A program made the position numbers and the translations under genes. The notes below the pieces were generated by a model. The model made no database searches, had not been told where the DNA came from, and saw only the letters and a program-made list of their open reading frames with translations. From Leptonemataceae bacterium (GTDB lineage Bacteria > Spirochaetota > Leptospiria > Leptospirales > Leptonemataceae), in assembly GCA_965227295.1 (NCBI GenBank), contig OZ245742.1, positions 1,984,001-2,048,000 of the forward strand: a stretch of 64,000 nucleotides of DNA. The letters run 5' to 3'. Of the stretch, positions 2,957 through 27,692 are shown piece after piece (within the stretch, counting starts at the first letter, position 1; each line of letters opens with the position of its first letter).

Positions 2957-3639
2957 AAGGGTACCGGCTCCCGGACCCAGGGCAATTCCGCGCAGAGACG
3001 CAAATCCAGAGCCGTCACGAAGCTCGTGCCGATGTACGACCTGGGCGCACTGAGAGTCAGGGAGGGAACCTTAAGCATACGCCGCAAGAACTGGTTTACC
3101 AGTTCATCGCTTTCCACGATGCAGTAAGTCGCCCCCATGTTTTCGTTCATCAAAAAAAGATGCCGCGCCATTCGCTGAAAAATGCGCATGCCGTCCGCCC
3201 AACGGTAGCCGGCGTCCACAACGGCCGCCGTATCCATGCAAAAATGGCTGCCGTGCCACAGAGAATCGACAGGGACGTTCCAGCGGCGAGCCAGTTCGCG
3301 GAAGTCGACGTCGAATATCTTCTCGGCCGCGAAGCGGGTATCCGGTTGCCAGCGTACGCAACGGTAACCGCCGATGATGGACGAAGGGGCATCCGCTTCC
3401 GACCAGAGGGCCGCCATATAGACGCCGTGCTCGGCCATACTCAGTTCTTCCGCGATCAAGGAATTGATCTCGTCTTCGTCCGCCGACCAGCCCTGACGTC
3501 GGCCGATGCGCCGCGCATACAGGTCGAATACGAAGCGCGCAAATTCTTCGATTCGGTCCAGGCCGAGTTGCGCTATAGTGATGGTGTCGGAAAGATGTTC
3601 CAGAATTCTGGTTTGCTCGGGACATGGGTATGCGTACAT
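2926..3639 (-). CDS. Putative GNAT-fold acyltransferase, LuxI/FeeM-like
   Basis: Pattern IIGGYRCVRW...AEKIFDVD...LWHGSHFCMD...YCIVESD...PRSYIG resembles acyl-HSL and N-acyl amino acid synthase folds. Confidence 0.55.
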   Translation of the reverse strand: MYAYPCPEQTRILEHLSDTITIAQLGLDRIEEFARFVFDLYARRIGRRQGWSADEDEINSLIAEELSMAEHGVYMAALWSEADAPSSIIGGYRCVRWQPDTRFAAEKIFDVDFRELARRWNVPVDSLWHGSHFCMDTAAVVDAGYRWADGMRIFQRMARHLFLMNENMGATYCIVESDELVNQFLRRMLKVPSLTLSAPRSYIGTSFVTALDLRLCAELPWVREPVPFQPHGKDTSR

Positions 3640-3701
3640 TGTGTACCTCTCTTGTGTTTAATTTTTGACTTCTGTGAGGAGTCCGTGAATTTGTTCCGGC
3701 G

Positions 3702-4397
3702 ATGCGGAGTGCACAGTTCATGCATATGGGAAAGGACCGGCCGAAGAATGCAAAACACAGGGTCTACCTGGTGGACGATGAGGTGATCGTCCGTGCCTGG
3801 TTGAAGGATCGTATCGAGGAAGAGGATGATCTGGAGTGCGCCGGGGAAGCCCGGAACGGTGATCACGCCGTAGATTATCTAACGGGACATCCCGGCTCCA
3901 TCGATCTGGTAATACTCGACCTGGCGATGCCCGGTCGCGACGGCTTTGAGGTCCTGAATGATCTTACGAACTGCCAGCCCGACGCCCGGGTGCTGATCTA
4001 TACGCAACACCGCGACCCTGAATTCGTGCGCCGCTGCCGTCGCCGCTGCCAGGGATACATGCTGAAAGACGAGCCCGTGGCGAACATCATGCCCGTCATC
4101 CATCTGATTCTGAGCGGAGAATCGTACTATTCTCCGGGCCTGGAGGCGCCGGAGTTCAACGCGCGCAGCGAGGGCGTGCTGGCGGATTTTAAGATTCGGC
4201 TGACGAAACTTACGCCCAGTGAGCGAGAGGTGGTGATCTGCACGGCCCGCGGGATGACCAGCCGGGACGCCGGCAAACACCTGGGCAAGAGTCACCGGAC
4301 AGTGGAAGAGCAGCTGCGTAAAATCTATCGCAAGCTCGGCGTAAACAATAAAGCGGAACTTGCGCAGTTTGCAGTACGCTCAAATCTCCTTGCATGA
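3702..4397 (+). CDS. NarL/LuxR-family response regulator (start may be 3720 or 3726)
   Basis: REC domain (LVDD, ILDLAMP, MLKD) plus LuxR HTH (LTPSEREV...RTVEEQLRKIYRKLGVNNKAEL). Confidence 0.92.
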   Translation: MRSAQFMHMGKDRPKNAKHRVYLVDDEVIVRAWLKDRIEEEDDLECAGEARNGDHAVDYLTGHPGSIDLVILDLAMPGRDGFEVLNDLTNCQPDARVLIYTQHRDPEFVRRCRRRCQGYMLKDEPVANIMPVIHLILSGESYYSPGLEAPEFNARSEGVLADFKIRLTKLTPSEREVVICTARGMTSRDAGKHLGKSHRTVEEQLRKIYRKLGVNNKAELAQFAVRSNLLA

Positions 4398-4608
4398 GCG
4401 TTTTCATTCAACGCTTTTCTATATCTTACGTAGTACTACATAAATTTCAGCCCGGAATTACGCGTCTTTCGGCGGAAAATCTTGCGACCCTGCGTCCTGT
4501 TTCTTTCGTCCAACGCGCACCGAAAAATATTGCAGCTCCGCCGCCTGCGGCTGATTATGTTGTCACGCAGGGCGGAGACGCGGGCGTTCGGGACAAGGTG
4601 GTACTTCT

Positions 4609-5004
4609 ATGAAACGAAAAGGTCTTACAATGGCGGTAGCGATTTTATGTTTGCTCACGGCGAGTGCGCTTACCGCGGAAGATGGTGCGAAACTCACGGA
4701 GGAGCAGAAGATCGAAAAGCTCCTCGCGGCCATCAGTTCTTCGAATGCCGTTTTCATTCGCAACGGCATCGAGTACGGCGCCGAGGCGGCCGTGGCGCAC
4801 ATGCGTCTAAAACTCTCGCGCTCGGGCGGAATGATCACGACGGCCGATCGTTTCATCGAGTATATTGCAACGAAGTCGTCTATTACAGGTATTCCGTACT
4901 ACATAAAGTTCCAGGACGGAACGAAAGTAAAGAGCGCCGACTGGCTGCGCGCACGGTTGCAGGAGATCGAAGAGCCGGAGGCCTGCTGCTCCATCTCTAA
5001 GTAA
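4609..5004 (+). CDS. Exported DUF5329-like protein
   Basis: Signal peptide; FIRNG...AVAHMRLK...FIEYIATKSSITGIPY...SADWL signature. Confidence 0.8.
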   Translation: MKRKGLTMAVAILCLLTASALTAEDGAKLTEEQKIEKLLAAISSSNAVFIRNGIEYGAEAAVAHMRLKLSRSGGMITTADRFIEYIATKSSITGIPYYIKFQDGTKVKSADWLRARLQEIEEPEACCSISK

Positions 5005-12441: not shown

Positions 12442-14883
12442 CTAGTCCTGTGTTTTGAAGCGCACCCGATCTTCCACGCCGAGGTCTTCTTTGGTGATGC
12501 CCAGCTCTTCCATTAAGAGCTTGCGTGCGTCTACGATGCGGTGTGCGTCGCCGCAGACGCCGTCCCGGGGCGCGGGCAGGGGGATGCCTTCGATGATTGT
12601 GTCGCCCATGGCGTAACCGCCGCAGCCGGTCGTTACGATGCCGGCCGGTTCTTCTTTCCACTGCGGATATTGCGCAAAGCGCGGCGCGGCCTGTCCCTTC
12701 TCACGATACACACGATCGTAGAAGGCGCCCATTACCGGAGCGGCGATGCTGCCCCCGGCCTGGCCCGGGCCCAGCGTCACGCTGGATTTGTCGAAGCCGA
12801 ACCAGATGACCGTGGCGTACTCGGGGTTGAAGCCGGTGATCCAGGCGTCGCTGAAGTTCGAGGTGGTGCCGGTTTTACACGCCAGTGCGCCCTGGCCCCA
12901 CCAGCCGCCTTCGCGGAGACCGCGCGTCGCCGTGCCGCCCTCGGCCACGCCCTGCATCATGCTGGAAAGAATGAACGCGAGGCCGGGCTCGATGATCTGA
13001 ATCGTTTCTTCGCGGGTCTTGATGGCCAGGTTGCGGCGCACGCGTTCTTCCTGGCCGTAAATGCGATTGCCGTTTTGATCTTCGACGTAACGAACGGCGA
13101 AGGGAATCACGTCCTTGCCGCCGTTGGCTATGATGGCCACCGCGTTGGCCAGTTCCATGGGCGTGATCTCGCCGGCCCCCAGGGCCAGGGCGGGATCCGG
13201 ATTAAAACGTGCGGTGTTGGAAATCTTCATGAGCCGCGAGGCCAGATCGATGATCGGCTCCGGTCCGGTGCGGAAGTAGGTCTGCACCGCCGCGGTGTTC
13301 AGGGACAGGGCGAGCGCGCGTTTCGCCGGAACGAGGCCCATGAAACCCTGGTCGTAGTTGCCCGGGGACCAGGAACTGCCGTCCGGCGCGACGATGAAAA
13401 ACGGGGCGTCGTTGATGCCGGTGGCGCTGGACATGGTGCGCGTTTCCAGGGCGGCGCCGTAGACGAAGATCTTAAACGCACTGCCGGGCTGGCGCCGGGC
13501 GCGCAACGCGCGATTGAACTGATTCGTCGGCGAGAAGTCCGTGCCGCCGATCATCGTGGTGATGTAACCGGTGCGCGGTTCGATGCCCAGGAACGCGCCC
13601 TGCACTTCCAGGTTCTCGGCGTAAGTGAAAGTATCTTTGCGGAATTCTTCGAAGGCCGCGGCCTCGTCGTTGGCGGGCGTTAAGTACGTGAGCGCCTGCA
13701 TGCCGTCCAGGAACTCGGCCTCGACCTCGCGACGGAATTTGCCGCGGTCATCCAGGGCCTTTGCGACGGGACCGCCCACCGGGGCAATGAGCGAGAGCGA
13801 ACGGTGTAGATCGAACAACGAAAAGTCCACTCCGCCACGACCGCCGGTCTTCGCGTAATTGCGGCCGATGCGGTTGGCATCCTCCAGGGCCGCGCCCATT
13901 TCTTCCTCGGCAATGCGCTGCTGGCGGAGGTCGAGGGTGGTGTAGACTTTGAGGCCGCGCGTATAGAGACGGTCTTCACCGACCTCGGGGGCGGCTTCGA
14001 GGATTTGCCGCACATACTCGGTGAAGTACGGGGCGTCGTTCAGGCGGCGGCCCCAGACGTTGCGCGACGGCGGCTCCACGACGACCTTGTTCCAGTAACT
14101 CTTCCAGAAGTCGGCGTGAATGGCATCGATCTCTTCGGCTTTGACGTAACCTACGTCCACCATGCGGTTCAGCACGAACTTGTGCTGTTTCATGGAGTTC
14201 TTCGGATATTTGAACGGGCTGTACTCGATGGGCGACTTGGGCAGGCGGGCCAGCAAGGCGCCCTCCGCCAGGGTCAGCTCCTGGACGGGCTTGTCGAAGT
14301 ACAGTCGCGACGCGCAGGCAATGCCCTGGCAGCCGTGGCCCAGGTAGATGACGTTAAAAAATACTTCGAGGATTTCTTCTTTAGAAAGGGCCTCTTCGAT
14401 TTGCAGGGCCAGCAGGGTTTCGCGGATCTTCTGTACGAAGCGGCGCTGGCGGCGGCCCTCGGCGTTGAGGTAGATCTGTTTCGCCAGTTGTTGCGAGAGC
14501 GTGGAGCCGCCCTGGACAATGCGGCCGGCCATGACATTCTTTACGGCCGCACGGAAAATGCCGGCAATGTCGATGCCGAAATGATGGAAGAAGTTGTCGT
14601 CCTCGACGGCCAGGAAGGCCTGAATTACGTGCGGCGGGATGTCCGAAAGCGGCACGATTTCCTGGCGATGGCGATAGAGCTCGGCAAAGACCTCGCCGTT
14701 GCGATCGTAGAGTCGCGTGGGCGTGGACGGCCGATACTGAGCCAGCATGGAAAGCTCCCGGCGACCGTCCACCTGGGAGACGATCAGCCCGTAGATTGCG
14801 CCGCCGACAACGCCCGCGGAAAGCAGGCCGATGAGAACGAGTTTTTCCAGTAGTGAGAGAATGCGTTTCTGACGATTGCTCAC
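12442..14883 (-). CDS. Class A penicillin-binding protein (PBP1A family)
   Basis: Transglycosylase EDDNFFHHFGID and QGGSTLSQQLAK; transpeptidase SAFK, SLN and KTG. Start placed at GTG 14883 before the TM anchor. Confidence 0.93.
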   Translation of the reverse strand: MSNRQKRILSLLEKLVLIGLLSAGVVGGAIYGLIVSQVDGRRELSMLAQYRPSTPTRLYDRNGEVFAELYRHRQEIVPLSDIPPHVIQAFLAVEDDNFFHHFGIDIAGIFRAAVKNVMAGRIVQGGSTLSQQLAKQIYLNAEGRRQRRFVQKIRETLLALQIEEALSKEEILEVFFNVIYLGHGCQGIACASRLYFDKPVQELTLAEGALLARLPKSPIEYSPFKYPKNSMKQHKFVLNRMVDVGYVKAEEIDAIHADFWKSYWNKVVVEPPSRNVWGRRLNDAPYFTEYVRQILEAAPEVGEDRLYTRGLKVYTTLDLRQQRIAEEEMGAALEDANRIGRNYAKTGGRGGVDFSLFDLHRSLSLIAPVGGPVAKALDDRGKFRREVEAEFLDGMQALTYLTPANDEAAAFEEFRKDTFTYAENLEVQGAFLGIEPRTGYITTMIGGTDFSPTNQFNRALRARRQPGSAFKIFVYGAALETRTMSSATGINDAPFFIVAPDGSSWSPGNYDQGFMGLVPAKRALALSLNTAAVQTYFRTGPEPIIDLASRLMKISNTARFNPDPALALGAGEITPMELANAVAIIANGGKDVIPFAVRYVEDQNGNRIYGQEERVRRNLAIKTREETIQIIEPGLAFILSSMMQGVAEGGTATRGLREGGWWGQGALACKTGTTSNFSDAWITGFNPEYATVIWFGFDKSSVTLGPGQAGGSIAAPVMGAFYDRVYREKGQAAPRFAQYPQWKEEPAGIVTTGCGGYAMGDTIIEGIPLPAPRDGVCGDAHRIVDARKLLMEELGITKEDLGVEDRVRFKTQD

Positions 14884-15028
14884 AGGAAGCCCCGGAATGA
14901 CCAGAATTCTCGCGGCGTCTCTCCACGGAAGTATTATTGTAGAAAGGCCGCTCCAAAACGGCGGCCCCGGATACCATTCGGGAGCAGTTGTTCTTGCCAC
15001 CGGCGGCCCTCCGGCGTAGGTTTCCGGC

Positions 15029-15937
15029 ATGCGGCAGAGTTGGTCCCAACAGAGCGTCTACTATCCCTCCGTCACGGACGTGGTTTTGCGCCTCATGGCG
15101 CTCATGCTTGCGGCCTTCGTCCTCCAGGTTGTGGCCACCATTATCTTTCCCGGCGAGGTGGTCTTCGATTCCTTCCGCGCGCTTACGCTCAACTTCCGCG
15201 ATTTCAGCCTGCTACAGATTTTCACGCATCCGCTGTTCGCCGCACCGCAACTCGTATCCGCTCTGATCGAGATCCTGTTGCAGTGCCTGGTGCTGTACTT
15301 CTTCGCCTCGGAGCTGGAGCGCACCTGGGGGCGGCACAACTTTCTCAGGTTTTACATCATCTGTCTCGCCGGCGGGGCGATCCTGGGCACCGCGCTCTTC
15401 TTTTTTCCGGAAGGCTACAACTACAGCGGCGTCCTGCACGGCATGGATGCGGCCATCGGCGGCGTGCTCGTCGCGTATGCCATCCTGTGGCCGGATCGCC
15501 AGGTGCTTTTGTTTTTCATCATCCCCGTGCGGATGAAGTGGCTGGTCTTTTTCATTTTTGTGATGCTGATCTTGAGCTTCATCGACGCTGCGACGGTGTT
15601 GATGAGCCTGGTCCTCTACTCCGGCGGCGGTGTGGCGGCGGCGTTGTTTCTGTACTACTACGCGCGCAAGGGCCGGCAGTACTCGGTGCTGTCGGATTCG
15701 CCGATGGCCGGCGACGGCGGCAGCGGTCAGAAGAAAAAGCCGCGCCCGAGTCTGCGGGAACGTTTGAACCAATACCTGCGCAAACGCCGCCTCAAGAAAC
15801 AACAGGATCTAATCAACCGGCGCATCGAAATGAAAGACGAGGTGGATCGACTGCTGGAAAAGATCTCGAAGGACGGCATGGATTCCCTTTCGAAAAAGGA
15901 AAGGGCGTTCCTGGATAAGGCTTCGAAGGAATTCTAG
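15029..15937 (+). CDS. Rhomboid-family membrane protein with DUF6576-like C-terminus, probably catalytically inactive
   Basis: LERTWG, AYAILWP..LLFFIIPVRMKW, tail EVDRLLEKISKDGMDSLSKKERAFL. Confidence 0.8.
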   Translation: MRQSWSQQSVYYPSVTDVVLRLMALMLAAFVLQVVATIIFPGEVVFDSFRALTLNFRDFSLLQIFTHPLFAAPQLVSALIEILLQCLVLYFFASELERTWGRHNFLRFYIICLAGGAILGTALFFFPEGYNYSGVLHGMDAAIGGVLVAYAILWPDRQVLLFFIIPVRMKWLVFFIFVMLILSFIDAATVLMSLVLYSGGGVAAALFLYYYARKGRQYSVLSDSPMAGDGGSGQKKKPRPSLRERLNQYLRKRRLKKQQDLINRRIEMKDEVDRLLEKISKDGMDSLSKKERAFLDKASKEF

Positions 15938-15957
15938 CAGGCTGCCCGGGCGTTCGA

Positions 15958-16593
15958 ATGATCCGGCACGTCGTCTTTGATCTGTACGGGACCCTGTTGG
16001 TTCCACCGACGGAGCGACGCCACGCATTCTCACGACTCCTGGACCATCTTGGTTTGCGCGGTGAACGTCGCCGCCATGCCCGCCGAACAGCCATGACCCG
16101 GGACTTCGCCCGCGCCGAAGACTATGTGGCGCGGTTCGATCCGAAGGCCGTGCACGATCCGGCCGTGCGTTTGATCCTGCAGGACATGGAACGGGACGTG
16201 GAGGAGCGCATCCGTTGTTACCCGGAAGTCCCTGCGGTGCTTGAGCGTTTGCGTGAGTCCACGGTGCGCATGCATTTGATTTCGAACGTTGCCTCGCCGT
16301 ACCGCCGGCCGTTCTATCGCCTGGGGCTGGATCGTTATTTTTCGCGTCCGGTTTTTTCGTGTGAAGTCGGTTGCGTGAAACCCGAGCCACAGATCTACGA
16401 TCTCGTCTTCGATCGTGCGGAAGCGGTCGCGCCGGAGACGGTGTTGATGATCGGTGACCATTCCGTCTGTGATGTTCGTCGGCCGCGCAGCCTGGGCTGG
16501 CAGGCCCTTCTGCTGGATCGCCGGGGCCGGCCGGGAGCCCTGGCCGATCTCGGCGAACTCCTGCACGGCCCGACGGCGATCACACTTACCTGA
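15958..16593 (+). CDS. HAD-superfamily hydrolase
   Basis: Motifs FDLYGTL, ISN, KPEPQIY and IGDHSVCD. Confidence 0.9.
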   Translation: MIRHVVFDLYGTLLVPPTERRHAFSRLLDHLGLRGERRRHARRTAMTRDFARAEDYVARFDPKAVHDPAVRLILQDMERDVEERIRCYPEVPAVLERLRESTVRMHLISNVASPYRRPFYRLGLDRYFSRPVFSCEVGCVKPEPQIYDLVFDRAEAVAPETVLMIGDHSVCDVRRPRSLGWQALLLDRRGRPGALADLGELLHGPTAITLT

Positions 16594-16608
16594 ACATAAA
16601 AAAAGCTT

Positions 16609-17781
16609 GTGAAAAAGGGAAGCGGATCGGAAAAATCGGCGGGGGCTTCGCACGTGGCATCGTTCAAGCGTTATCTGGAATTACGGGACCAGAGTTCATC
16701 GAAGTTCTGGGAAATCGAACTACAGGGGCAGAAGTTCGTGGTGCGTTTCGGTCGCATCGGCACAAAGGGCAGCCTCAACGAAAAGGTCTACGACTCGGAG
16801 GACGAGGCGGAGAAAGAGGCGCATAAGCTCATTTCATCGAAACTTAAGAAGGGCTACGCCGAATCCACCGGCTCCGACTTCGACGTCTTTCAATTTCGCC
16901 AAATTGATTACCGCATGGGGAAGGGCCTCGATCGTCCCGAGTCGACCATATTTCGGTTGTCCGTGGATTACGACGACGATCATTCTTTCGAAGACCTTTT
17001 CAACGCATTCCTGAAGGAACCGGGATTGAACCAGGTCCGGGCGCTCAGCATCGGCATGTGGGAAGAGGTACTCGCCGACGATATCGAGACGCCGCGGCGA
17101 TTGCTCCTGGAAGCCGCGCCGAAGATGCCGCAGTTGAAAGCCCTCTACTACGGTGATGTCGAACAAGAAGAAAGCGAAATCTCCTGGATCGAGTTGACCG
17201 ATCTCGCGCCGGTGGTGCACGCTTTGCCGAATCTCGAAGTCTTTCGCGTGCGCGGTTCCTTATTGCGCCTGAAGAATCTTCAACACGATAAACTCGGCGC
17301 ATTGATCATCGAAAGCGGGGGCACGAGCAAAGACACCCTGGCCGATGTTTGCGCGGCGAAGTTGCCCGCGTTGCAGCACCTGGAGATCTGGATCGGCGTG
17401 GAGGATTACGGCTGGGACGGGAGCATTGCCGACATAGAGCCGCTCTTTGAGGCCGGCCGCTTCCCGTTGCTCAAGCACCTCGGTGTGATGAATGCAAAAG
17501 AGCAGGACGAGATTGCCCGCGTCGCCGCCCGGGGCGCCGTGCTCCAGGATCTGCAATCCCTGGATCTTTCCATGGGTGTGCTGACCGATGCCGGCGCCCG
17601 TCATCTCTTGCAAAGTGATGCTGTTCGTAAGTTAAAGGCGCTGAACCTGCGCCATCACTTCATGAGCGCCGGCGTTGCCCGGGAGTTTCAGGGCATCGGC
17701 CCCGCCGTAAACACCGCCGGAAGCAATGAGCCGGATATTGACGACGACGAGGTCTACTATTACACCGAGGTCGCCGAATAG
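16609..17781 (+). CDS. WGR domain + STM4015-family leucine-rich-repeat protein
   Basis: WGR motif SSKFWEI...VRFGRIGTKG...KLKKGY. STM4015-like ALSIGMW, EISWIE, LEIWIGVEDYG, LDLSMGVLTDAGA, LNLRHHF. Confidence 0.85.
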   Translation: MKKGSGSEKSAGASHVASFKRYLELRDQSSSKFWEIELQGQKFVVRFGRIGTKGSLNEKVYDSEDEAEKEAHKLISSKLKKGYAESTGSDFDVFQFRQIDYRMGKGLDRPESTIFRLSVDYDDDHSFEDLFNAFLKEPGLNQVRALSIGMWEEVLADDIETPRRLLLEAAPKMPQLKALYYGDVEQEESEISWIELTDLAPVVHALPNLEVFRVRGSLLRLKNLQHDKLGALIIESGGTSKDTLADVCAAKLPALQHLEIWIGVEDYGWDGSIADIEPLFEAGRFPLLKHLGVMNAKEQDEIARVAARGAVLQDLQSLDLSMGVLTDAGARHLLQSDAVRKLKALNLRHHFMSAGVAREFQGIGPAVNTAGSNEPDIDDDEVYYYTEVAE

Positions 17782-17796
17782 ACCACGAGCGCCGCT

Positions 17797-18981
17797 TTGA
17801 AATCACCGGCATACATCTGGATCGGCAACCCGGAACACCGCCGCTGGCCGGGCTTCCAACGTGCCGCCCGGGAAGCGGCTGTGGTTGCCCGCTTACTTTC
17901 GTACGAAGAAATCTTAGCCTGCCTGGGGCAACCCGGCGAACTCCGGCATCGTCTCGCCGCGGCAATCGATGGGCTGGACCACCCGGTGCTGCGCCTGGAA
18001 GCCCCCGGAAAGAACGTTACCGTCAGTGACGCACTGACGCGATTGGGTGGTCGTCTTCTGGAGGAGGCCGGTGCTCCGCTTGCGTCGGGTACCGCACCGG
18101 CCGGACCGGGTCGGCTGGGTTCGCCGCGCGCCCGGTACACCGGCTATGCCTGGTTGCTGCGCCGCCTGGATTGCCTGTGGTCGGAGATTCTCGGCGAACG
18201 CGACGCGGCGCTGCCGGTATACGTCAATCATCCCGAGGACGTGCTGACGATGTGCTCGAAGCCGCAGACGTACGAACGATTCTTCCGGAACGCGCTGCCG
18301 GTGCCGCGCAAGCTTACGAGCGTAAACAGCTACGAAGAGTTACTTACGGAGATGGGACGTGCCGGAATTTCGCGCGTGTTTCTGAAGCCTGCTCACGGAT
18401 CGTCCGGGGTGGGCATCGTGGCACTGCGGGTCTCGAACCTGCCGCGACCCCGGCGTATGGCGGCTTACTCCACGGCTGTCCTGCGTGACGGCGAAGTCTA
18501 CAACAGCCGGCGCATTCGGCGTTACGAGTCGCCGGCGGAGATCGCACGCATCATCGATCGGCTGGCCGGCGAAGAACTGCACGTCGAGGAGTGGATTCCT
18601 AAACCTGCGCCGATCTCCGGTTACGCCGGTGACTGGCGCCTGCTGGTGATAGCCGGTCGAGCGCGGCACCGCGTCTTGCGACTGAGCCGGTCGCCCTTTA
18701 CGAATCTGCATCTCGGCAACGAGCGCAGTCACGCCGCCGCCGATCCCGAGACGCTTGCGACTTTCGAAGCACTGGCGCGCCAGACGGCCGCGTGTTTTCC
18801 GCGCTCGCTGTATTTCGGCCTGGACGTCATTGTTCGTCGCGACGGGCGGCCCATCATCCTCGAAGCGAACGCTTACGGTGATCTTTTGCCCGGCGTGCTG
18901 CATCAATCGCAGACGACGTACGCCGCGGAGCTGGCGGCTTTTCCGGACTTCGCGGCCGTGTCACGGGAGGCGCGGACGTGA
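17797..18981 (+). CDS. STM4014-family ATP-grasp protein
   Basis: IGNPEHRR, VFLKPAHGSSGVG, HVEEWIPK, SPFTNLHLGN, GLDV, ILEANAYGDLLPG. Confidence 0.88.
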   Translation: MKSPAYIWIGNPEHRRWPGFQRAAREAAVVARLLSYEEILACLGQPGELRHRLAAAIDGLDHPVLRLEAPGKNVTVSDALTRLGGRLLEEAGAPLASGTAPAGPGRLGSPRARYTGYAWLLRRLDCLWSEILGERDAALPVYVNHPEDVLTMCSKPQTYERFFRNALPVPRKLTSVNSYEELLTEMGRAGISRVFLKPAHGSSGVGIVALRVSNLPRPRRMAAYSTAVLRDGEVYNSRRIRRYESPAEIARIIDRLAGEELHVEEWIPKPAPISGYAGDWRLLVIAGRARHRVLRLSRSPFTNLHLGNERSHAAADPETLATFEALARQTAACFPRSLYFGLDVIVRRDGRPIILEANAYGDLLPGVLHQSQTTYAAELAAFPDFAAVSREART

Positions 18982-19811
18982 GGGACATGCAAGCCATCGT
19001 CGGGCACTGTGACATCGTGTTCGTTACTCTCGATACGTTGCGCTACGACGTGGCCGCGGCGGAACTGAGCGCCGGTCGCCTGCCGTCCCTGGGGCGATTC
19101 ATTGCACGCTGGGAGAAACGCCACAGTCCAGGAAACTTTACGTACGCGAGTCACCAGGCGTTCTTCGGCGGCTTTTTGCCGACGCCGGCGGAACCTGGTT
19201 TGCACCCGCGGCTTTTCGCGCTGGACTTTCCGGGCAGTGAAACGACGGCGGAAGGTACTTTTGTGTTTCAGTCGGACAGCATCGTAGCGGGCCTCGCGGC
19301 GGAGGGTTATCATACCATATGCGTGGGCGGAGTCGGTTTTTTCAACAAGCTGCCCGGCCTCGGTTCGGTGTTGCCGGCCTTCTTTCAGGAGAGCCACTGG
19401 TCCCGGGAAACGAGCGTAGTCGATCCGGAGTCCACGCGGCATCAGGTGGATTGGTGCATCCGCCGCCTGGATGAGATCGATGGAAAAGACGCCGACCGCC
19501 GCATCTTTCTCTTCGTGAACGTCTCGGCGATGCACGATCCGAATCATTTTTATCGTGCGGATTACTCCGGCGAAGGCAATCCGGTGCTTCCCCGCAACAG
19601 CATGGACGGCCACGCGGGTGCGCTAAGATACGCGGACCGGGAGTTAGGGCGTTTGTTTGATCGATTGGCGCGGCGGGGGCGTTGGTTTGCCGTCGTTTGC
19701 TCGGACCACGGCACGGCTTACGGCGACGACGGCTACGAGGGGCATCGCAACGGCAGCGAGGTTGTCTGGACGGTACCCTACGCGGACTTCATGATCGAGG
19801 CGACGCCGTGA
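18978..19811 (+). CDS. STM4013/SEN3800-family metallo-hydrolase (alkaline phosphatase/sulfatase fold)
   Basis: VTLDTLRYDVA, HSPGNFTYASHQAFFGGFLPTP, CSDHGTAYGDDGYEGHR. Confidence 0.88.
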   Translation: MRDMQAIVGHCDIVFVTLDTLRYDVAAAELSAGRLPSLGRFIARWEKRHSPGNFTYASHQAFFGGFLPTPAEPGLHPRLFALDFPGSETTAEGTFVFQSDSIVAGLAAEGYHTICVGGVGFFNKLPGLGSVLPAFFQESHWSRETSVVDPESTRHQVDWCIRRLDEIDGKDADRRIFLFVNVSAMHDPNHFYRADYSGEGNPVLPRNSMDGHAGALRYADRELGRLFDRLARRGRWFAVVCSDHGTAYGDDGYEGHRNGSEVVWTVPYADFMIEATP

Positions 19812-21172
19812 ATCAGTTGCATGGTCAGCGTTCCGGGGCGCTTGCTCTCGAAGAAATCCTGCTCCGGCCCGAGCTGCATACGTACCTCTACTCGTATCCG
19901 CACAAACACGCGTATCGCGAACTGGACACGCCGGTTCCTGTACAGGATGCCTGGGCCTCTGAAGATGCCTCCGCGCTGTTTCTCTACGTGCACGTTCCGT
20001 TTTGCGAGAGCCGCTGCGGGTTTTGCAATCTCTTCGCCGTCGCCCGGCCGGAGGAAGGCCTGGTCGAGCGATACGTCGCCGCGTTGCGGCGGGAGTTCGC
20101 GGTCATGCAAGAAGTCGCGGCGCAACGTGCTCCCTGGCGATTCGCGCAGTTCGCTTTCGGCGGCGGTACACCTTCGTTTTTATCCGTGCGGCAACTGGAA
20201 GACCTGTTGTCCCAGGTGCGCGCTCTGGCCGGCGCGATTCCGGGCGGTGTGGAGGTGGCACCGGACAGCGCGACCGCCGATCGCCTGGACGTGCTGCGGG
20301 CGTACGGGATCGAGCGGGTGAGCATCGGCGTGCAGAGTTTCTTCGAGAACGAAACTGCCGCCGTCTTTCGCAGGCAATCCGTCCAGGATGTGCACGGCAG
20401 CCTTCAGCGTATCCGCGATCGCAGCTTTCCGTCGCTGAACATCGACCTCATCTACGGCCTGCCGGAGCAAACCTTGCAGACCTGGCGCGATTCATTGCAC
20501 GCGGCGTTGGAACATGCACCGGAGGAGTTGTACCTGTATCCGCTGTATGTACGCCCGGGTACGGGCTTCGGCAAGCACCACGACGACTATGAGGCGGAAC
20601 GCACACGATTTTACCGGCTCGGCCGCAAACTTCTACTGCACGCAGGTTACCGGCAGATCTCCATGCGTCTTTTTCGCCGGGGGGACGTTACCGATCCGGA
20701 ATCCCGGGAGTACCGTTGCCAGGCGGACGGCATGGTAGGCCTCGGCGCCGGCGCGCGCTCGTATACGCGGTCTTTGCATTACTCCGGTCCGTACGCCGTG
20801 GGGCGGGCGTCCACGGCGAAAATTATTCGGGACTACGTGCATCGCGGCGAAGAGGAGCTGCGCCGGATCACTTACGGCATTCATTTGAACGAACGCGAAC
20901 AGCGGCATCGCTTTGTGATTCTGTCGCTCCTCATGAAGGACGGCCTTTCCCTGACGGACTACCGCAAGCGTTTCGGCCTGGATGCGTGGGATGATTTCAG
21001 CCGCATCCGGGACCTGCGTCGCCTGGTGGACGCAGGCTACGCGGAGGTACAAACATCCACGGAAGAGATCTTACGACTGACCCCGGCCGGCCTGGAGCGC
21101 AGCGACGCCCTGGGGGCCTGGCTCATCTCCGACGCGGTGCGCGCACGTATGGAGGCGTTTGATCTGCGATGA
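19808..21172 (+). CDS. STM4012-family radical SAM protein (HemN-like fold)
   Basis: YSYPHK, YVHVPFCESRCGFCNLF (CxxxCxxC), GGGTP, NIDLIYG, YLYPLYVRP, GLGAGARSYT. GTG start overlaps the upstream TGA. Confidence 0.9.
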   Translation: MNQLHGQRSGALALEEILLRPELHTYLYSYPHKHAYRELDTPVPVQDAWASEDASALFLYVHVPFCESRCGFCNLFAVARPEEGLVERYVAALRREFAVMQEVAAQRAPWRFAQFAFGGGTPSFLSVRQLEDLLSQVRALAGAIPGGVEVAPDSATADRLDVLRAYGIERVSIGVQSFFENETAAVFRRQSVQDVHGSLQRIRDRSFPSLNIDLIYGLPEQTLQTWRDSLHAALEHAPEELYLYPLYVRPGTGFGKHHDDYEAERTRFYRLGRKLLLHAGYRQISMRLFRRGDVTDPESREYRCQADGMVGLGAGARSYTRSLHYSGPYAVGRASTAKIIRDYVHRGEEELRRITYGIHLNEREQRHRFVILSLLMKDGLSLTDYRKRFGLDAWDDFSRIRDLRRLVDAGYAEVQTSTEEILRLTPAGLERSDALGAWLISDAVRARMEAFDLR

Positions 21173-22065
21173 ACCTCAGCATTCTGTATCGCGGCTCTCT
21201 GGATAGCTGCAACTATGCCTGTCCGTATTGTCCGTTCGGTAAGAATCCCGTGGACCGCGACAATCTACGCATCGACGCGCAACAACTGGAGCGTTTCGTC
21301 GAGCGGATCGCGGAGAACCCGGAGGGCTTTCGGACGATCTCACTGTTCTTCACACCCTGGGGCGAAGCGTTGATCCATCGCAGTTATCAGCGTGCCCTGG
21401 TACGTTTGAGTCATCTAACGCACGTTCCCCGCGTGGCCGCTCAGACGAATCTTTCGTTTCGTCCGGAGTGGCTGGAGGATTGCGACGCGAGGGCGATGGG
21501 TCTCTGGGCGACGTATCATCCCGGTGAGGTCGACGCGGCGCGTTTCGCCCGGAAGAGCCGGCGTTTGCTGGAGATGGGCATTCGCCACAGCGTCGGCGTC
21601 GTGGGAGTTCGTGAGCACTTCCCGGCCATTCGTGACATGCGTGCAGAGCTTTCGCCCGATGTGTACATGTGGGTGAACGCGATCAAACGGCCGGCGCAGT
21701 ACTATGACGCTGCGGACATCGAGTTTCTGGAAGGCATTGATCCGCACGTGCGCTGGAATCTTGAACCGCATGCGAGCTTCGGCCGGGCCTGTCGCACCGG
21801 TGAGAGCGTGGTCTCCGTAGACGGCGCGGGCGAAGTGCGGCGCTGTCACTTTGTTCCGGAGCGTCTGGGGAATCTCTACGAAACATCGCTCCGGGAGATG
21901 CTGCGTCCCCGGGCCTGCACGAACCAGGAGTGCCGCTGTCACATCGGCTACGTGCATCTGGAAGCCTTGCAGTTGGACCGGCTGTACGGGGACGGCATCC
22001 TGGAACGGTTGCCCGCGGCGCACCGAACGTACGGCGCGCCCGTGTCGGGCCTGTCGCGGATTTAA
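21169..22065 (+). CDS. STM4011-family radical SAM protein with C-terminal Cys cluster
   Basis: LYRGSLDSCNYACPYCPF, FTPWGEAL, AQTNLS, CRTG...RRCHF...CTNQECRCHIGY. Confidence 0.9.
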   Translation: MNLSILYRGSLDSCNYACPYCPFGKNPVDRDNLRIDAQQLERFVERIAENPEGFRTISLFFTPWGEALIHRSYQRALVRLSHLTHVPRVAAQTNLSFRPEWLEDCDARAMGLWATYHPGEVDAARFARKSRRLLEMGIRHSVGVVGVREHFPAIRDMRAELSPDVYMWVNAIKRPAQYYDAADIEFLEGIDPHVRWNLEPHASFGRACRTGESVVSVDGAGEVRRCHFVPERLGNLYETSLREMLRPRACTNQECRCHIGYVHLEALQLDRLYGDGILERLPAAHRTYGAPVSGLSRI

Positions 22066-22580
22066 GGCCGCTCCAGTTTCAGTAGCGCCGCGTAGGGATC
22101 ACCGTAACTCTCGATTGCAAAGTATTTGCAAAAGGCAGCTTCGGTGCTGAGGCCGCTGCGTTTCAGCGCGCGAATCGCGGCTCGCGCCGCGGCCGGGTCG
22201 TTCGCCGTTTTCAGGAGTTGTCGTTCGATCCGCATATGTCGCCAGGCATACTGTGTCTCTACCGGACGTGCTTCGGCGTAGATTTCGATGCGCGCGCCTG
22301 CGGGGAATTCCGGCGGGTAGTGTGAGATTGTGCGGAAGTTCGCCACACGCGCTTCGTCGCGTTGCCAGGCTGTGAACTCCGGGAACGTTTCGTAGTGCTG
22401 CGCCACGAGATTCGCAAAGGCGTCGAGGTCCGCCGCGTGGCAGATCACATCCAGGTCGCTGTCGGGCAGATCGACGTCCAGCGGGATCGTGCCGGTCAGC
22501 GTGGGATTGTAGGGGGCCAGCACGGTCCACAGGCCGATCTCATCGAGTATCGCGCGGGCGGCGGTTTCGCGGGGCGGCAT
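22062..22580 (-). CDS. DUF4269-family protein (nucleotidyltransferase-like)
   Basis: GTIPLDVDLPDSDLDVIC, IEIY, AWRHMRIE, LKRSGLSTEAAF, DPY. Confidence 0.8.
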   Translation of the reverse strand: MPPRETAARAILDEIGLWTVLAPYNPTLTGTIPLDVDLPDSDLDVICHAADLDAFANLVAQHYETFPEFTAWQRDEARVANFRTISHYPPEFPAGARIEIYAEARPVETQYAWRHMRIERQLLKTANDPAAARAAIRALKRSGLSTEAAFCKYFAIESYGDPYAALLKLERP

Positions 22581-22779
22581 GAGTAGAGAGTCAGGGAGCG
22601 ACGGATTGCGTAAAGAAATTGTTCCGGATTATGTCACATCATCGCGACCCGCCCCATCTTACGAAATTTCCCTGGAATCCGCGTTTCTGTACGGGATTTG
22701 CCGTTGACGGGGCAGGCCGGGCGCAAAAGGCTGCCAGTTCTTCTACTATTACAGCAGATCTCTTACGGAACACAGGCAC

Positions 22780-23238
22780 ATGGCCGTCACACTGAAACAA
22801 CAGCGGACGCAATATACCCGCAACGAAGACCTCAAGAAGGACTGGATCCTCATCGACGCGGAGGAGCAAACCCTCGGTCGTCTCGCATCGCGCATCGCGC
22901 ATCGCCTGCGCGGCAAACACCGCCCCGACTACGCTCCGCACCAGGACAACGGCGACAACGTTGTCGTGGTGAACGCGGGAAAAATCAAAGTCAGCGGCCG
23001 CAAGCTCGACCAGAAGATCTACTATGAGCACTCCGGCTACACCGGCGGCATGAAAACGTCCACCCTGCGCCGGAAGCTGAACGAGGACCCCACCTACGCC
23101 CTGAAGACCGCGGTGAAGCGCATGCTGCCCCCCGGTCCCCTGGGACGCCGGCTCCTCGGCAATCTCCGCGTCTTCGCCGGTGAAGAGCACGGTCACGCGG
23201 CCCAGCAGCCCACCCGGATCGACCCGGCGAAACTCTAA
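22780..23238 (+). CDS. rplM: 50S ribosomal protein L13
   Basis: [34 protein letters not shown]. Confidence 0.98.
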
Positions 23239-23937: not shown

Positions 23938-25110
23938 ATGGGCACGGCACTCGGTCAGCGAATCGCGAATTACACGCGGGACAAAGTCTTTCGCAGCATT
24001 CACAACAATCACTTAATCTACAACACCAGTTGGGAAGACCCGGCCATCGATCGAAAACTGATGGACATCGGCAAAGATTCTCACATTGTCATGATCACCA
24101 GCGCGGGGGACAACGCCCTCGACTATCTCCTGGATCGTCCGGCGAGCATCAACAGCGTGGACGTGAATCCGCGCCAGAACGCGCTCTTCGAACTCAAACG
24201 TTCGGTCATCAAAAACGCCGAATTCCAGGATCTCTACAAAATGTTCGGCAACGGTTACCACGAAAGCATCGCCGATCTTTACAAAGGCAAACTCCGTGCA
24301 AGTTTACCGGAGTACGCCCGCAAGTTCTGGGACAAGCGCATGAAGTTTTTCAAGCGCGGCGGCCTGAAGAAATCGTTCTACTACTACGGCGGCGCCGGCA
24401 CCCTCGCCTGGCTCTGGCAGGTCTACTGTAAAGTGCACAAGCGCCTGGACCAGAACATCCGCTGGTTGTTCAACGCGCAGACCATGGAAGAACAAAAAGC
24501 GGCTTACGAAAAGCTCGAGCCGATTCTCTGGAACCGCGCGGTAAGCTGGCTCCTCGGTCGTCACATTACCCTGGCCGCCATGGGTGTACCCCGGGCCCAG
24601 CGCGATCTGATCATGAACGGTTTCGAAGGCGGGCTCGCCGGCTTTCTGCGCGACAGTGTGCGTCGCGTCTTCACCGAAGTGCCGGTCACCGAGAACTACT
24701 TCTGGCGCGTCTACGCCACGGGCTCCTACTCTCCGGAGTGCGCGCCGGGTTATCTGCGCGAGAATAACTTCGAAACGTTGCAGGAAACCGTGGACCGCGC
24801 GCACATCCACAACACGACGATGATCGAATTCCTGAAGAACAACCCGCGCGAGTACACGCACTACGTACTGCTCGACCATCAGGACTGGCTGGCCTGGAAC
24901 GATCCGGCCTCCCTGGAAGAAGAGTGGCAGCAGATTCTCCAGAACAGCAAACCGGGCACGAAGATCCTCATGCGTTCCGCTTCGCCGAAGGTCGACTTCC
25001 TCCCGGACTTCGTCCTCGACCGGGTGGACTTCCAGGAAGAAACGAATCTGCACGCCCGGTGCCGCGTAGGTACTTATGCGAGCCTCCTCGTCGGGACGGT
25101 ACAGGCATGA
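23938..25110 (+). CDS. btaA: BtaA-like (DUF3419) SAM:diacylglycerol 3-amino-3-carboxypropyl transferase
   Basis: IYNTSWEDPAID, ITSAGDNALDY, VDVNPRQNALFELK, NYFW, LLDHQDW, RSA, RVGTYAS. Confidence 0.85.
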   Translation: MGTALGQRIANYTRDKVFRSIHNNHLIYNTSWEDPAIDRKLMDIGKDSHIVMITSAGDNALDYLLDRPASINSVDVNPRQNALFELKRSVIKNAEFQDLYKMFGNGYHESIADLYKGKLRASLPEYARKFWDKRMKFFKRGGLKKSFYYYGGAGTLAWLWQVYCKVHKRLDQNIRWLFNAQTMEEQKAAYEKLEPILWNRAVSWLLGRHITLAAMGVPRAQRDLIMNGFEGGLAGFLRDSVRRVFTEVPVTENYFWRVYATGSYSPECAPGYLRENNFETLQETVDRAHIHNTTMIEFLKNNPREYTHYVLLDHQDWLAWNDPASLEEEWQQILQNSKPGTKILMRSASPKVDFLPDFVLDRVDFQEETNLHARCRVGTYASLLVGTVQA

Positions 25111-25856: not shown

Positions 25857-27692
25857 ATGACCAATATCCTCGGCATTTCCTGCTTCTATCACGACTCCGC
25901 GGCGGCTCTCATTCGGGACGGCAAGATCATTGCTGCCGCCCAGGAAGAGCGCTTCACCCGCAAGAAACACGATCCGGATTTTCCCTTGCACGCCTGCGAG
26001 TACGTGCTGCGCGAGGGCGGCATTACGCAGGCCGACGTGGACGTCGTCGCGTTCTACGATAAATCCTTTCTGAAGTTTGAACGTTTGCTGGAGTCCGTGC
26101 TGGACGGCTGGCACCGGGCGCTGCGCCTGTGGTTGACCGCCGTCCCCTCCTGGCTCGATCACAAGTGGCTCATTAAACGTACCGTCTACGATCGCCTGGA
26201 GGACCTGAACCCGGACGCGCGCTTCGTGTTTCCCGAGCACCACGAGTCCCATGCCGCCGCGGCCTTTTATCCGTCGCCGTTCGAGAAGGCGGCCTTTCTT
26301 ACGATCGACGGCGTCGGCGAATGGGCGACGACTTCCTGGGGCCTGGCCGAGGGCAAGGACGTGCGGATCCGCCAGGAGATCCACTTCCCGCATTCGTTAG
26401 GTTTACTTTATTCAGCATTTACGGCTTACACGGGCTTTAAGGTCAACTCGGGCGAGTACAAAGTAATGGGACTTGCCCCCTACGGCGAACCGAAGTTCGT
26501 GCAGAAGATTTACGATCACATTCTGGATGTAAAACCGGACGGATCGTTTCGCCTCAACATGGAGTACTTCGACTATACCGCCGGCTTGCGCATGGCCAAC
26601 GAAAAGTTCTACGAGGTCTTCGGCGGTCCGCCGCGTAAGTCGGAGACGAGGTTGAGTCAACGCGAGATGGACCTGGCACGCTCGGTGCAGGTGGTGATCG
26701 AAGAGACCGTGCTGAAGCTCGGCAACTACATTCACGAACAGAGCGACGGGATCGAGAACCTCTGTCTGGCCGGCGGCGTGGCTTTGAACTGTGTGGCGAA
26801 CGGCATTCTACTGCGCGAAGGCAAGTTCAAAAACGTCTGGATTCAACCGGCCGCCGGGGACGCGGGTTCCGCCGTGGGCGCGGCGCTCATGGCCTGGCAC
26901 AAGGTTCTCGGCAACGAACGTAAGTTAGCGGAAGCCTCGAAGGTCCAGCAGGGTTCGTACCTGGGCCCGCACTATTCCTCCGACGAGATCCAGGCCTACC
27001 TCGATCGCGAAAACATTCCGTACACGAAGTACGACGATAACCTCGCAGCGGCCCGGGCCACGGCGCAGTTGATCGCCGACGGCAACGTTATCGGCTGGTT
27101 CTCCGGACGCATGGAGTTCGGTCCGCGGGCCCTCGGCGCGCGCAGTATCCTGGGTGATCCGCGCAGCGAGAAGATGCAGTCGACCATGAACCTGAAGATC
27201 AAGTTCCGCGAATCGTTCCGCCCGTTCGCGCCCAGCGTTTTGCGCGAGGATGTCTCGACTTACTTCGAACACGACGGCGACTCGCCGTACATGCTCATCG
27301 TCGCGCCGGTGAAGGAACATTTGCGCAAAGAGATGAGCGCGGAACAGCAAAAACTGTTCGGCATCGAAAAGCTCAACGTTACCCGCTCGGAGCTGCCGGC
27401 GATCACGCACGTGGACTACTCGGCGCGCATCCAGACCGTGGACGGAGAGTTTCATCCGGCCTATTACGAACTCATCAAAGAATTCAAGCGACTCACCGGT
27501 TACGGCGTCGTCATCAATACCTCGTTCAACGTTCGGGGCGAGCCCATCGTCAACACGCCGGAGCAGGCCTACACGTGTTTCCAGCGTACGCACATGGACT
27601 ATCTGGTGCTCGAAAACTTTGTCCTCGATAAACGCGAGCAGCCGGAGCTCGAGGACGACGTCGACTGGAAGAACGAGTTCGAGCTGGACTGA
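25857..27692 (+). CDS. Carbamoyltransferase, NodU/CmcH (SxtI-like) family
   Basis: LGISCFYHDSAAAL, EERFTRKKH, EHHESHA, DGVGE, EYKVMGLAPYG, MEFGPRALG, NTSFNVRGEP. Confidence 0.93.
   Translation: MTNILGISCFYHDSAAALIRDGKIIAAAQEERFTRKKHDPDFPLHACEYVLREGGITQADVDVVAFYDKSFLKFERLLESVLDGWHRALRLWLTAVPSWLDHKWLIKRTVYDRLEDLNPDARFVFPEHHESHAAAAFYPSPFEKAAFLTIDGVGEWATTSWGLAEGKDVRIRQEIHFPHSLGLLYSAFTAYTGFKVNSGEYKVMGLAPYGEPKFVQKIYDHILDVKPDGSFRLNMEYFDYTAGLRMANEKFYEVFGGPPRKSETRLSQREMDLARSVQVVIEETVLKLGNYIHEQSDGIENLCLAGGVALNCVANGILLREGKFKNVWIQPAAGDAGSAVGAALMAWHKVLGNERKLAEASKVQQGSYLGPHYSSDEIQAYLDRENIPYTKYDDNLAAARATAQLIADGNVIGWFSGRMEFGPRALGARSILGDPRSEKMQSTMNLKIKFRESFRPFAPSVLREDVSTYFEHDGDSPYMLIVAPVKEHLRKEMSAEQQKLFGIEKLNVTRSELPAITHVDYSARIQTVDGEFHPAYYELIKEFKRLTGYGVVINTSFNVRGEPIVNTPEQAYTCFQRTHMDYLVLENFVLDKREQPELEDDVDWKNEFELD

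Follow-up and report, generated by a model that had tools for sequence, protein, structure and literature searches.

The 64,000-nucleotide (nt) stretch of Leptonemataceae bacterium DNA analyzed here (the window; GenBank assembly GCA_965227295.1, contig OZ245742.1, positions 1,984,001 to 2,048,000) carries a complete STM4015–STM4011-type cassette. It encodes a leucine-rich-repeat (LRR) protein, an ATP-grasp ligase, an alkaline-phosphatase-superfamily phosphoesterase, and two radical S-adenosylmethionine (SAM) enzymes. We propose that the enzymes of the cassette act on, or build on, the flexible, acidic C-terminal tail of their own LRR protein, a reading to which we assign a probability of about 0.5. 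The LRR protein is the candidate substrate or carrier because its almost invariant C-terminal tail ends in Glu. The cassette is real and widespread across bacterial groups. In it, two radical SAM enzymes are paired with a ligase that resembles, by fold, those acting on a protein C-terminal Glu, beside a protein that almost always ends in Glu. If the tail is the substrate, the cassette would represent either a new post-translational modification or a carrier-protein pathway of a new kind. A crystal structure of an STM4015 family member already exists (2RA8).

Five co-directional open reading frames (ORFs) occupy positions 16609–22065 of the plus strand, and every product scored above the curated NCBIfam cut-off of its family (Table 1). 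Pfam gave weak ATP-grasp matches for STM4014, a Sulfatase match (alkaline-phosphatase superfamily) for STM4013, and Radical_SAM and HemN_C matches for STM4012. The Radical_SAM match of STM4011 (27.7 bits) fell slightly below the gathering score. A previous sequence-only reading of this DNA had named the complete five-gene operon and the coupling of its last four genes, and both held up. The genes are adjacent, and the stop and start codons, read directly, overlap by 4 nt at GTGA 18978–18981, GTGA 19808–19811, and ATGA 21169–21172. STM4015 stops at TAG 17779–17781, and the TTG start of STM4014 lies 15 nt downstream. The longest STM4012 frame begins at TTG 19682, and the family model aligns only from near residue 66 of this frame, so GTG 19808 is the likely start. 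For the first protein, the database gene call (P0001, 375 residues) starts at GTG 16654 instead of 16609. A scan of positions 14800–22800 for promoters and terminators gave nothing exceeding the shuffled expectation.

The previous reading overlooked both the N-terminal WGR domain of the first protein and a HAD-IA family phosphatase gene (15958–16593), which ends 15 nt before GTG 16609. According to the coordinates, the only intergenic gaps between the HAD gene and the end of STM4011 are 15 nt each, so a separate precursor gene has no room in the operon. The remark that no obvious precursor peptide is present nevertheless has to be revised, since the near-invariant, Glu-ending tail makes the LRR protein an obvious candidate substrate or carrier. 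The absence of an assigned function was borne out in the literature searched. Locus-tag searches for STM4011–STM4015 returned incidental mentions only and no functional study, and searches on the gene and domain combination found no functional work. STM4013 is listed in a table of sigma-54 chromatin immunoprecipitation sites within PMC3844500.

The conservation of the tail was followed in two samples. The 100 best homologues of the window STM4015 included 93 with distinct C-termini, and all but one of these 93 non-redundant sequences end in Glu; the exception (P0084) ends in unrelated sequence. An acidic stretch is followed by the pattern [YW]-R-Y-[VI]-x-V-[SAGT]-E. Counted from the C-terminus of the 93 sequences, position –3 is Val in 78, position –6 is Tyr or Phe in 85, position –7 is Arg in 65, and position –8 is Tyr or Trp in 54, while positions –9 to –17 are Asp or Glu for most. 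The second, independent sample was anchored on STM4013 and not on STM4015. It consists of the best 80 loci, selected by STM4013 alone, from a scan of 185,579 species representatives (one genome per species) with an 8-sequence STM4013 alignment; the other families were located by phmmer with the window proteins. A terminal Glu was found in 77 of its 78 best STM4015 matches. The exception (L030) is a 38-bit match only and is probably not the true STM4015 gene.

The window protein ends in YYYTEVAE and thus has the conserved Y-x-x-V-x-E tail. Salmonella STM4015, both tandem Deinococcus copies, and the crystallized 2RA8 have the same kind of ending. The STM4015 family profile matched 2RA8 over profile positions 11–296 (E = 2.8e-85, 289 bits). 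This uncharacterized Bacteroides protein (Q64V53_BACFR) natively ends in ...YSYPMITE; it shares the LRR domain and the tail only, its alignment does not include a WGR domain, and the title of the entry gives no function. STM4015 is present in one copy only in the source genome, where the strict tail motif occurred in 2 of the 25,957 stop-to-stop frames of at least 100 residues: STM4015 itself and one non-acidic 105-residue frame. Extra domains of STM4015 homologues, namely one WGR, two WGR, or HEAT repeats, are always N-terminal. No C-terminal fusion was seen among matches of up to 683 residues, and no STM4015 forms of 684–2000 residues were found, which is weak evidence.

STM4014 carries all the ATP-grasp catalytic motifs. 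In an alignment of 29 sequences, K155, K197, E264, D279, R281, TNLHL 302–306, D343, E356, and N358 were invariant. For its AlphaFold model (predicted local distance difference test score, pLDDT, 91.3), Foldseek ranked LysX (3vpd), ArgX–LysW (3vpb, two chains), and LysX/ArgX–LysW (5k2m) at positions 1–4. With VIA-align, LysX 3vpd and ArgX–LysW 3vpb gave Z = 23.1 with a root mean square deviation of 2.8 over 270–273 aligned residues. They were followed by RimK (4iwx, 5zct, 5zk6, 7qys; Z = 22.5–21.4), GshB (Z = 21.8), and the PPIP5K/Asp1 kinases and D-Ala-D-Ala ligases (Z of about 21–20). LysX, ArgX, and RimK target a protein C-terminal Glu, LysX ligating onto LysW and RimK onto ribosomal protein S6. 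Compared with solved structures, the STM4014 family profile matched LysX best (E = 0.005) and then RimK (E = 0.01), both weakly. The NCBIfam matches to RimK and MptN were also weak; with 20.1 bits against a cut-off of 143.4, STM4014 lies outside the RimK family TIGR00768. Atlas clusters contained its own family only, a minority of members being labeled YheCD, RimK, or ATP-grasp_3. Single-sequence PDB searches with STM4014, STM4011, and STM4013 yielded nothing useful.

These data invite a comparison with the LysW/LysX system. The likeness is that an ATP-grasp enzyme of the closest predicted fold stands beside an acidic, Glu-ending protein, and the model of STM4014, with its intact catalytic residues, is placed in the LysX/ArgX/RimK structural group. 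STM4014 has about 110 residues more than LysX/ArgX, and the sequence similarity is marginal. The partners differ more. LysW is a small zinc-ribbon protein with the C-terminal motif EDWGE, whereas the window candidate is a 390-residue WGR–LRR protein, built on an LRR domain of the ribonuclease-inhibitor (RI) type of about 290 residues and ending in ...DDDEVYYYTEVAE. It shares only the terminal Glu and the acidity with LysW, its family motif being [YW]-R-Y-[VI]-x-V-x-E. When the operon and its flanks were scanned with Pfam and NCBIfam, no LysZ/LysY/LysJ/LysK-type kinase, reductase, aminotransferase, or deacylase was detected; unlike in the LysW route, the partner enzymes here are radical SAM enzymes and phosphoesterases. 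The likeness to RimK is at the fold level only. RimK acts on the C-terminal Glu of S6, whereas the candidate substrate of STM4014 is a dedicated operon partner.

On this basis, a three-step scheme can be drawn. STM4014 would activate the Glu390 carboxylate as an acyl-phosphate and ligate an amine to it, as LysX does with LysW and RimK with S6; the fold and the tail conservation suggest this step. STM4012 and STM4011 would then modify the tail, or the group tethered to it, by radical chemistry, judging from their families. Finally, STM4013 and the HAD phosphatase may strip phospho or nucleotidyl groups from the intermediate, a role proposed from their families and a gene fusion described below.

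The radical SAM enzyme STM4011 has the extra Cys cluster that the sequence-only reading had reported. Besides C14, C18, and C21, five further Cys residues (C208, C226, C250, C255, and C257) are present, and each of these positions keeps its Cys in 95% or more of 77 aligned sequences. A Cys-rich domain placed C-terminal to the radical SAM core is the SPASM/twitch arrangement, for which binding of an auxiliary cluster is predicted; a full SPASM domain has seven or eight Cys residues, compared with the five of STM4011. The fold neighbors of the STM4011 model (pLDDT 89.6) include the protein and peptide modifiers SkfB (Z = 15.5), SuiB (14.3), anSME (13.9), EpeE (13.8), PqqE (13.6), and CteB, which supports the tail as substrate. 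The family profile found only SkfB in the PDB (E = 0.84). As in the systems of SkfB, SuiB, PqqE, and anSME and in carrier-peptide pathways such as that of the pearlins (PMC9303977), a twitch/SPASM-like radical SAM enzyme lies beside an encoded candidate substrate with a conserved C-terminus. Unlike in ribosomal-peptide maturase loci, the Pfam matches of the cassette comprised no short leader-bearing precursor, peptide-recognition element, or protease. Enzymes of small molecules scored as high as the peptide maturases. BlsE was the best match (Z = 16.4), and MoaA (14.7), DesII (14.2), and the viperins (about 13) were level with the maturases. MoaA, DesII, and viperin act on nucleotides or nucleotide sugars. 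Taken together, the neighbors favor neither class of substrate.

In 15 STM4013 sequences, R22, D24, T55, H59, N181, D243, and H244 were invariant, and D19, H186, and H256 were nearly so. The C-terminal half of the family profile matched sulfatases, and the N-terminal half, including Thr55, matched the nucleotide pyrophosphatase/phosphodiesterase (NPP) 2gsn. The conserved metal Asp/His residues and Thr place STM4013 in the NPP-like branch. By analogy, Thr55 is taken to be the nucleophile, and the metal-binding roles of the Asp and His residues are assigned in the same way. In two proteins, complete STM4013 and STM4012 are naturally fused (P0123, 784 residues, 373 and 498 bits; P0129, 703 residues, 372 and 482 bits). 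Such fusions speak for a joint action of the phosphoesterase and the HemN-like enzyme. We also considered STM4011 as an anSME-type sulfatase maturase for STM4013. Sulfatases that undergo such maturation carry a Cys/Ser-x-Pro-x-Arg signature; STM4013 instead conserves a Thr where the nucleophile is expected, and the idea was rejected for this reason. STM4013-like domains of a more distant kind are joined to glycosyltransferase-like regions (P0245, P0257). Agrobacterium plasmids of about 177–207 kb (H16–H25) encode a conserved ‘sulfatase-like hydrolase/transferase’, 24–26% identical to STM4013 over 97% of its length, which is a distant paralogue outside the cassette.

The HAD gene of the window scored below all NCBIfam equivalog cut-offs, the best matches being DREG-2, TIGR02253, and YjjG-like. 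Of the 80 anchored loci, 9 have a second HAD-IA type embedded immediately upstream of STM4013. This second type is closest to the YjjG/TIGR02253 nucleotidase-type families, below their cut-offs, and its identity to the window HAD is 24% over 113 residues. In Salmonella, a Cof-type HAD-IIB gene overlaps the end of STM4011, and another Cof-type IIB gene lies near the Deinococcus cassette copy. With the HAD types of this analysis as seeds, no HAD was found within 10 kb in the remaining 71 anchored loci. Because three different HADs have been recruited to the same cassette, a phosphatase step seems to be needed, as these associations suggest. The embedded HAD occurs in six of the seven loci whose STM4015 carries a WGR domain (L048, L060, L061, L066, L072, and L075, but not L062); these seven loci are mutually related, and no statistic was drawn from them.

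Two phosphoesterases would be more natural in a pathway for a phosphorylated small molecule than in one that acts on a protein tail. The cassette may thus make or salvage a free phosphorylated metabolite, probably derived from a nucleotide or a sugar phosphate, with the LRR protein as a scaffold or regulator whose tail docks on an enzyme. The radical SAM enzymes would modify the metabolite, the NPP-like enzyme would cleave a phosphodiester or pyrophosphate, the HAD would take the last phosphate, and the ATP-grasp enzyme would add an amino acid. The recruitment of three unrelated HAD types (IA in the window, another IA elsewhere, and Cof-type IIB), the nearness of the embedded one to nucleotidase-type families, the NPP-like half of STM4013 around Thr55, and the BlsE-like fold of STM4011 are all in keeping with it. 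It leaves unexplained why a non-enzymatic repeat protein keeps a near-invariant terminal Glu in 77 of 78 loci, and why the ATP-grasp enzyme is closest to the protein-tail ligases. Moreover, the neighbors that are conserved are lineage-specific, and none that is shared across phyla is a transporter gene or a further biosynthetic gene. This explanation is better for the phosphoesterases and the BlsE/MoaA-like fold and worse for the invariant tail and the LysX-like ligase; we consider it the main rival, possible but doubtful.

Several points weigh against the LRR tail as the substrate of the cassette. The operon has no amidase of the LysK kind and no peptidase to release a product, which also speaks for a free metabolite. 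The carrier would be a 30-kDa repeat protein and not a small zinc ribbon, with a tail other than EDWGE. The lead of LysX, ArgX, and RimK over the other ATP-grasp folds is small (about 1–2.5 Z), and the profile matches to LysX and RimK are not significant alone. The best fold match of STM4011 is BlsE. The invariant C-terminus could also be a docking or autoinhibitory motif. A bolder form of the tail-modification scheme treats the LRR protein as a LysW-like carrier, whose Glu is loaded by the ATP-grasp enzyme and rebuilt by the HemN-like and the twitch-type radical SAM enzymes; for instance, a HemN-type oxidative decarboxylation might convert the Glu propionate side chain to a vinyl group. This would be an undescribed protein-templated radical chemistry, giving a new cofactor or warhead borne by the protein, or a new metabolite that can be released, which front modules (WGR, HEAT, and the neighboring WD40 proteins) would deliver to a nucleic-acid or protein target. 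We hold this form to be unlikely.

Table 1. Features of the cassette in the window (positions of the window; NCBIfam and Pfam scores in bits)
Feature	Position	Strand	Support
HAD-IA family phosphatase, probable sixth member of the operon	15958..16593	+	Pfam Hydrolase/HAD_2; membership in the insertion block
WGR–STM4015 fusion: WGR, RI-type leucine-rich-repeat domain, acidic tail ending in Glu	16609..17781	+	NF038076 (residues 115–390), 299.3 against a cut-off of 275; PF05406
WGR domain (residues 20–87)	16666..16869	+	PF05406, 65.4
C-terminal tail NTAGSNEPDIDDDEVYYYTEVAE, proposed substrate/carrier arm, terminal Glu390	17710..17778	+	Near-invariant terminal Glu in the family
STM4014 ATP-grasp ligase, predicted LysX/ArgX/RimK-like fold	17797..18981	+	NF038074, 297.3 against a cut-off of 175
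STM4013/SEN3800 alkaline-phosphatase-superfamily phosphoesterase, NPP-like core	18978..19811	+	NF038075, 369.6 against a cut-off of 250
STM4012 HemN-like (class C type) radical SAM enzyme, HemN_C domain	19808..21172	+	NF006067, 533 against a cut-off of 380
STM4011 radical SAM enzyme, C-terminal twitch/SPASM-like Cys cluster	21169..22065	+	NF038073, 374.5 against a cut-off of 200

The expectation that the families would match and co-occur was confirmed in the STM4013-anchored sample. Among its 80 loci, STM4015, STM4014, and STM4012 were each found in 78 and STM4011 in 76, a co-occurrence far beyond chance. Misses in L031, L036, L045, and L065 are at contig ends. The only miss away from a contig end is an 11-kb Thiomargarita contig (L002), which has STM4013 (1102–1881, 57% identity) and none of the other four families. 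The order 4015-4014-4013-4012-4011 is the same in Salmonella, Deinococcus, and most of the anchored loci. The closest described counterpart is the Salmonella STM4011–STM4015 type locus, between ompL and typA, which has the same five families, order, start/stop overlaps, and terminal Glu of the LRR protein, and an accompanying HAD. Its LRR protein (283 residues) lacks the WGR domain that the window protein carries at its N-terminus, and its HAD is of Cof-type IIB and stands last, whereas that of the window is of type IA and stands first. The NCBIfam names derived from this locus (STM4011–STM4015) carry no function.

An exhaustive HMMER search with STM4013 retrieved 798 cluster representatives with E ≤ 1e-3, of which 58 reached E ≤ 1e-30, and the locus scan yielded an estimated 2,600 or so matching stretches, a figure that counts stretches and not species. 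The 80 anchored loci belong to Actinomycetota, Cyanobacteriota, Pseudomonadota, Myxococcota, Planctomycetota, Chloroflexota, and Thermodesulfobacteriota. Plasmid and megaplasmid records add Deinococcota, Bacillota, and an alphaproteobacterium. The cassette thus occurs in at least nine phyla, Salmonella and E. coli included. In a phage collection, three records matched, all of Salmonella or E. coli (2–156 kb) and either unannotated or annotated as hypothetical protein; we read them as chromosomal fragments and not as phage carriage.

In the order of the source organism, 2 of 41 genomes, with the window genome counted among them, carry STM4013 above the cut-off. The gene is missing from the two genomes of the same genus (G001 and G002, each 93% complete). 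We compared 18 kb around the locus with these two genomes. Synteny is kept on one side at the S1-domain gene, PBP1A, and the rhomboid gene, and resumes on the other side from about window position 22770. Less than about 600 bp beyond the rhomboid gene, G001 has an oppositely oriented DUF4269 homologue, and next to it a homologue of a 185-residue ORF. Neither a HAD nor the cassette lies between the rhomboid and DUF4269 genes in G001 or G002, and a search of both genomes for the window HAD found no homologue at E ≤ 1e-5. The accessory block therefore spans about 15940–22065 and comprises the HAD and the five genes, the HAD being counted in because it is missing together with the cassette at this site. 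A self-contained unit of five genes had been proposed; the five families stand, but the size does not, as the HAD in the same insertion makes it an operon of probably six genes. Because it is absent from both same-genus genomes and present in only 2 of 41 relatives, the cassette is not a housekeeping system.

STM4012 conserves C66-x3-C70-x2-C73 (CxxxCxxC) and GGGTP 118–122, and its best PDB matches were HemN (1olt, 1.6e-27) and the class C methyltransferase NocN (9p2u, 1.2e-23). The window STM4012 is highly divergent: it shows at most 51% identity, has the longest terminal branch (1.36) in a tree of 33 rows, and falls within no supported clade. The window thus holds a divergent representative of the cassette that was acquired horizontally. 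The match to HemN and the HemN_C domain would agree with a housekeeping role in tetrapyrrole metabolism, in which STM4012 acts like HemN, HemW, or ChuW on coproporphyrinogen or heme and the other proteins are accessory. STM4012 is far under the cut-offs of hemN (TIGR00538; 149.4 vs. 324.95), HemW (145 vs. 205), and HutW (131 vs. 400), while it is above that of its own family. The other five genes have no tetrapyrrole link, and the patchy presence among relatives described above also speaks against such a role, which we regard as very improbable.

The fusion of a WGR domain to STM4015 was found in 27 of the 93 non-redundant homologues and in 7 of the 78 anchored loci with an STM4015 match. The front module of the repeat protein is interchangeable, being WGR, double WGR, or HEAT, or is lacking altogether. 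The WGR domain probably positions the protein on a partner, which may be nucleic acid; PMC4275035 describes WGR as a predicted nucleic-acid-binding domain. A single ancient WGR subtype is unsupported, since the WGR label requires four changes on the STM4012 tree, although the starred branches are still compatible with one origin.

Such variable, sensor-like modules on a constant LRR domain raise the question of a conflict or defense system. In this view, an invader molecule, such as nucleic-acid ends recognized by WGR, would be sensed by the LRR protein and its WGR, HEAT, or WD40 modules, and the radical SAM enzymes would then be switched on to make a toxic or chain-terminating nucleotide in a viperin-like manner. 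The predicted nucleic-acid binding of WGR, the patchy distribution (2 of 41 related genomes, and also plasmids and megaplasmids), and the viperins among the fold neighbors of STM4011 would fit this picture. An association with defense islands, which the sequence-only reading had listed for analysis, did not emerge with the PADLOC-DB 2.0 models, as the cassette, its flanks, and the neighbors gave only partial or generic matches. The cassette proteins yielded a 43.6-bit partial match to the candidate system PDC-M51A and two matches at E of about 0.01. Eleven flank or conserved-neighbor proteins had no match except a generic one to WD40 repeats. From 11 diverse loci, 8 of 117 flanking ORFs matched generic ATPase, oxidoreductase, or TnpB-like models, and no system was recovered. 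The flanks are conserved within lineages, the Salmonella cassette lies between ompL and typA, and the phage collection contained no true phage record with the cassette. A role in defense is accordingly improbable.

The flanks of the window cassette are ordinary genes, encoding an S1-domain protein, PBP1A, a rhomboid protein, DUF4269 and DUF3419 proteins, and a carbamoyltransferase. The DUF4269 gene (22062–22580, minus strand, 145 bits) converges on STM4011 with overlapping stop codons. It marks the right-hand edge of the insertion because G001, which lacks the cassette, has a homologue of this gene at the corresponding position (36% identity). Farther downstream lie the genes for the DUF3419 protein (23938–25110, plus strand, 361 bits) and the carbamoyltransferase (25857–27692, plus strand). 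The latter sits elsewhere in G001 and G002, which points to a second rearrangement near the cassette.

In other lineages, a DUF6745 gene adjoins the cassette in 39 of the 80 anchored loci and at the Deinococcus copy, and a WD40 gene lies between STM4015 and STM4014 in 11–27 loci, the count varying with the criterion used. The window has neither of these genes. DUF6745 and a protein of about 200 residues without a Pfam match (34–37 loci) are constant neighbors in the actinomycete loci (L003–L081), examples being L022 6293–7435 (minus strand) and L019 13377–13976 (plus strand). A Deinococcus plasmid (L102) has two tandem STM4015 paralogues at 3053–4919 before a single enzyme set, both ending in ...W-R-[YF]-V-A-L-G-E, and its DUF6745 and HAD genes are located just downstream. 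In the cyanobacterial, Nostoc-type loci (L010, L017, L028, L055, L057, and L073), WD40-type genes split STM4015 from STM4014, and 1–4 kb of extra DNA precedes STM4011. STM4015 has an N-terminal HEAT-like region in these loci, and Hsp70-like and GrpE-like genes are found upstream on the other strand.

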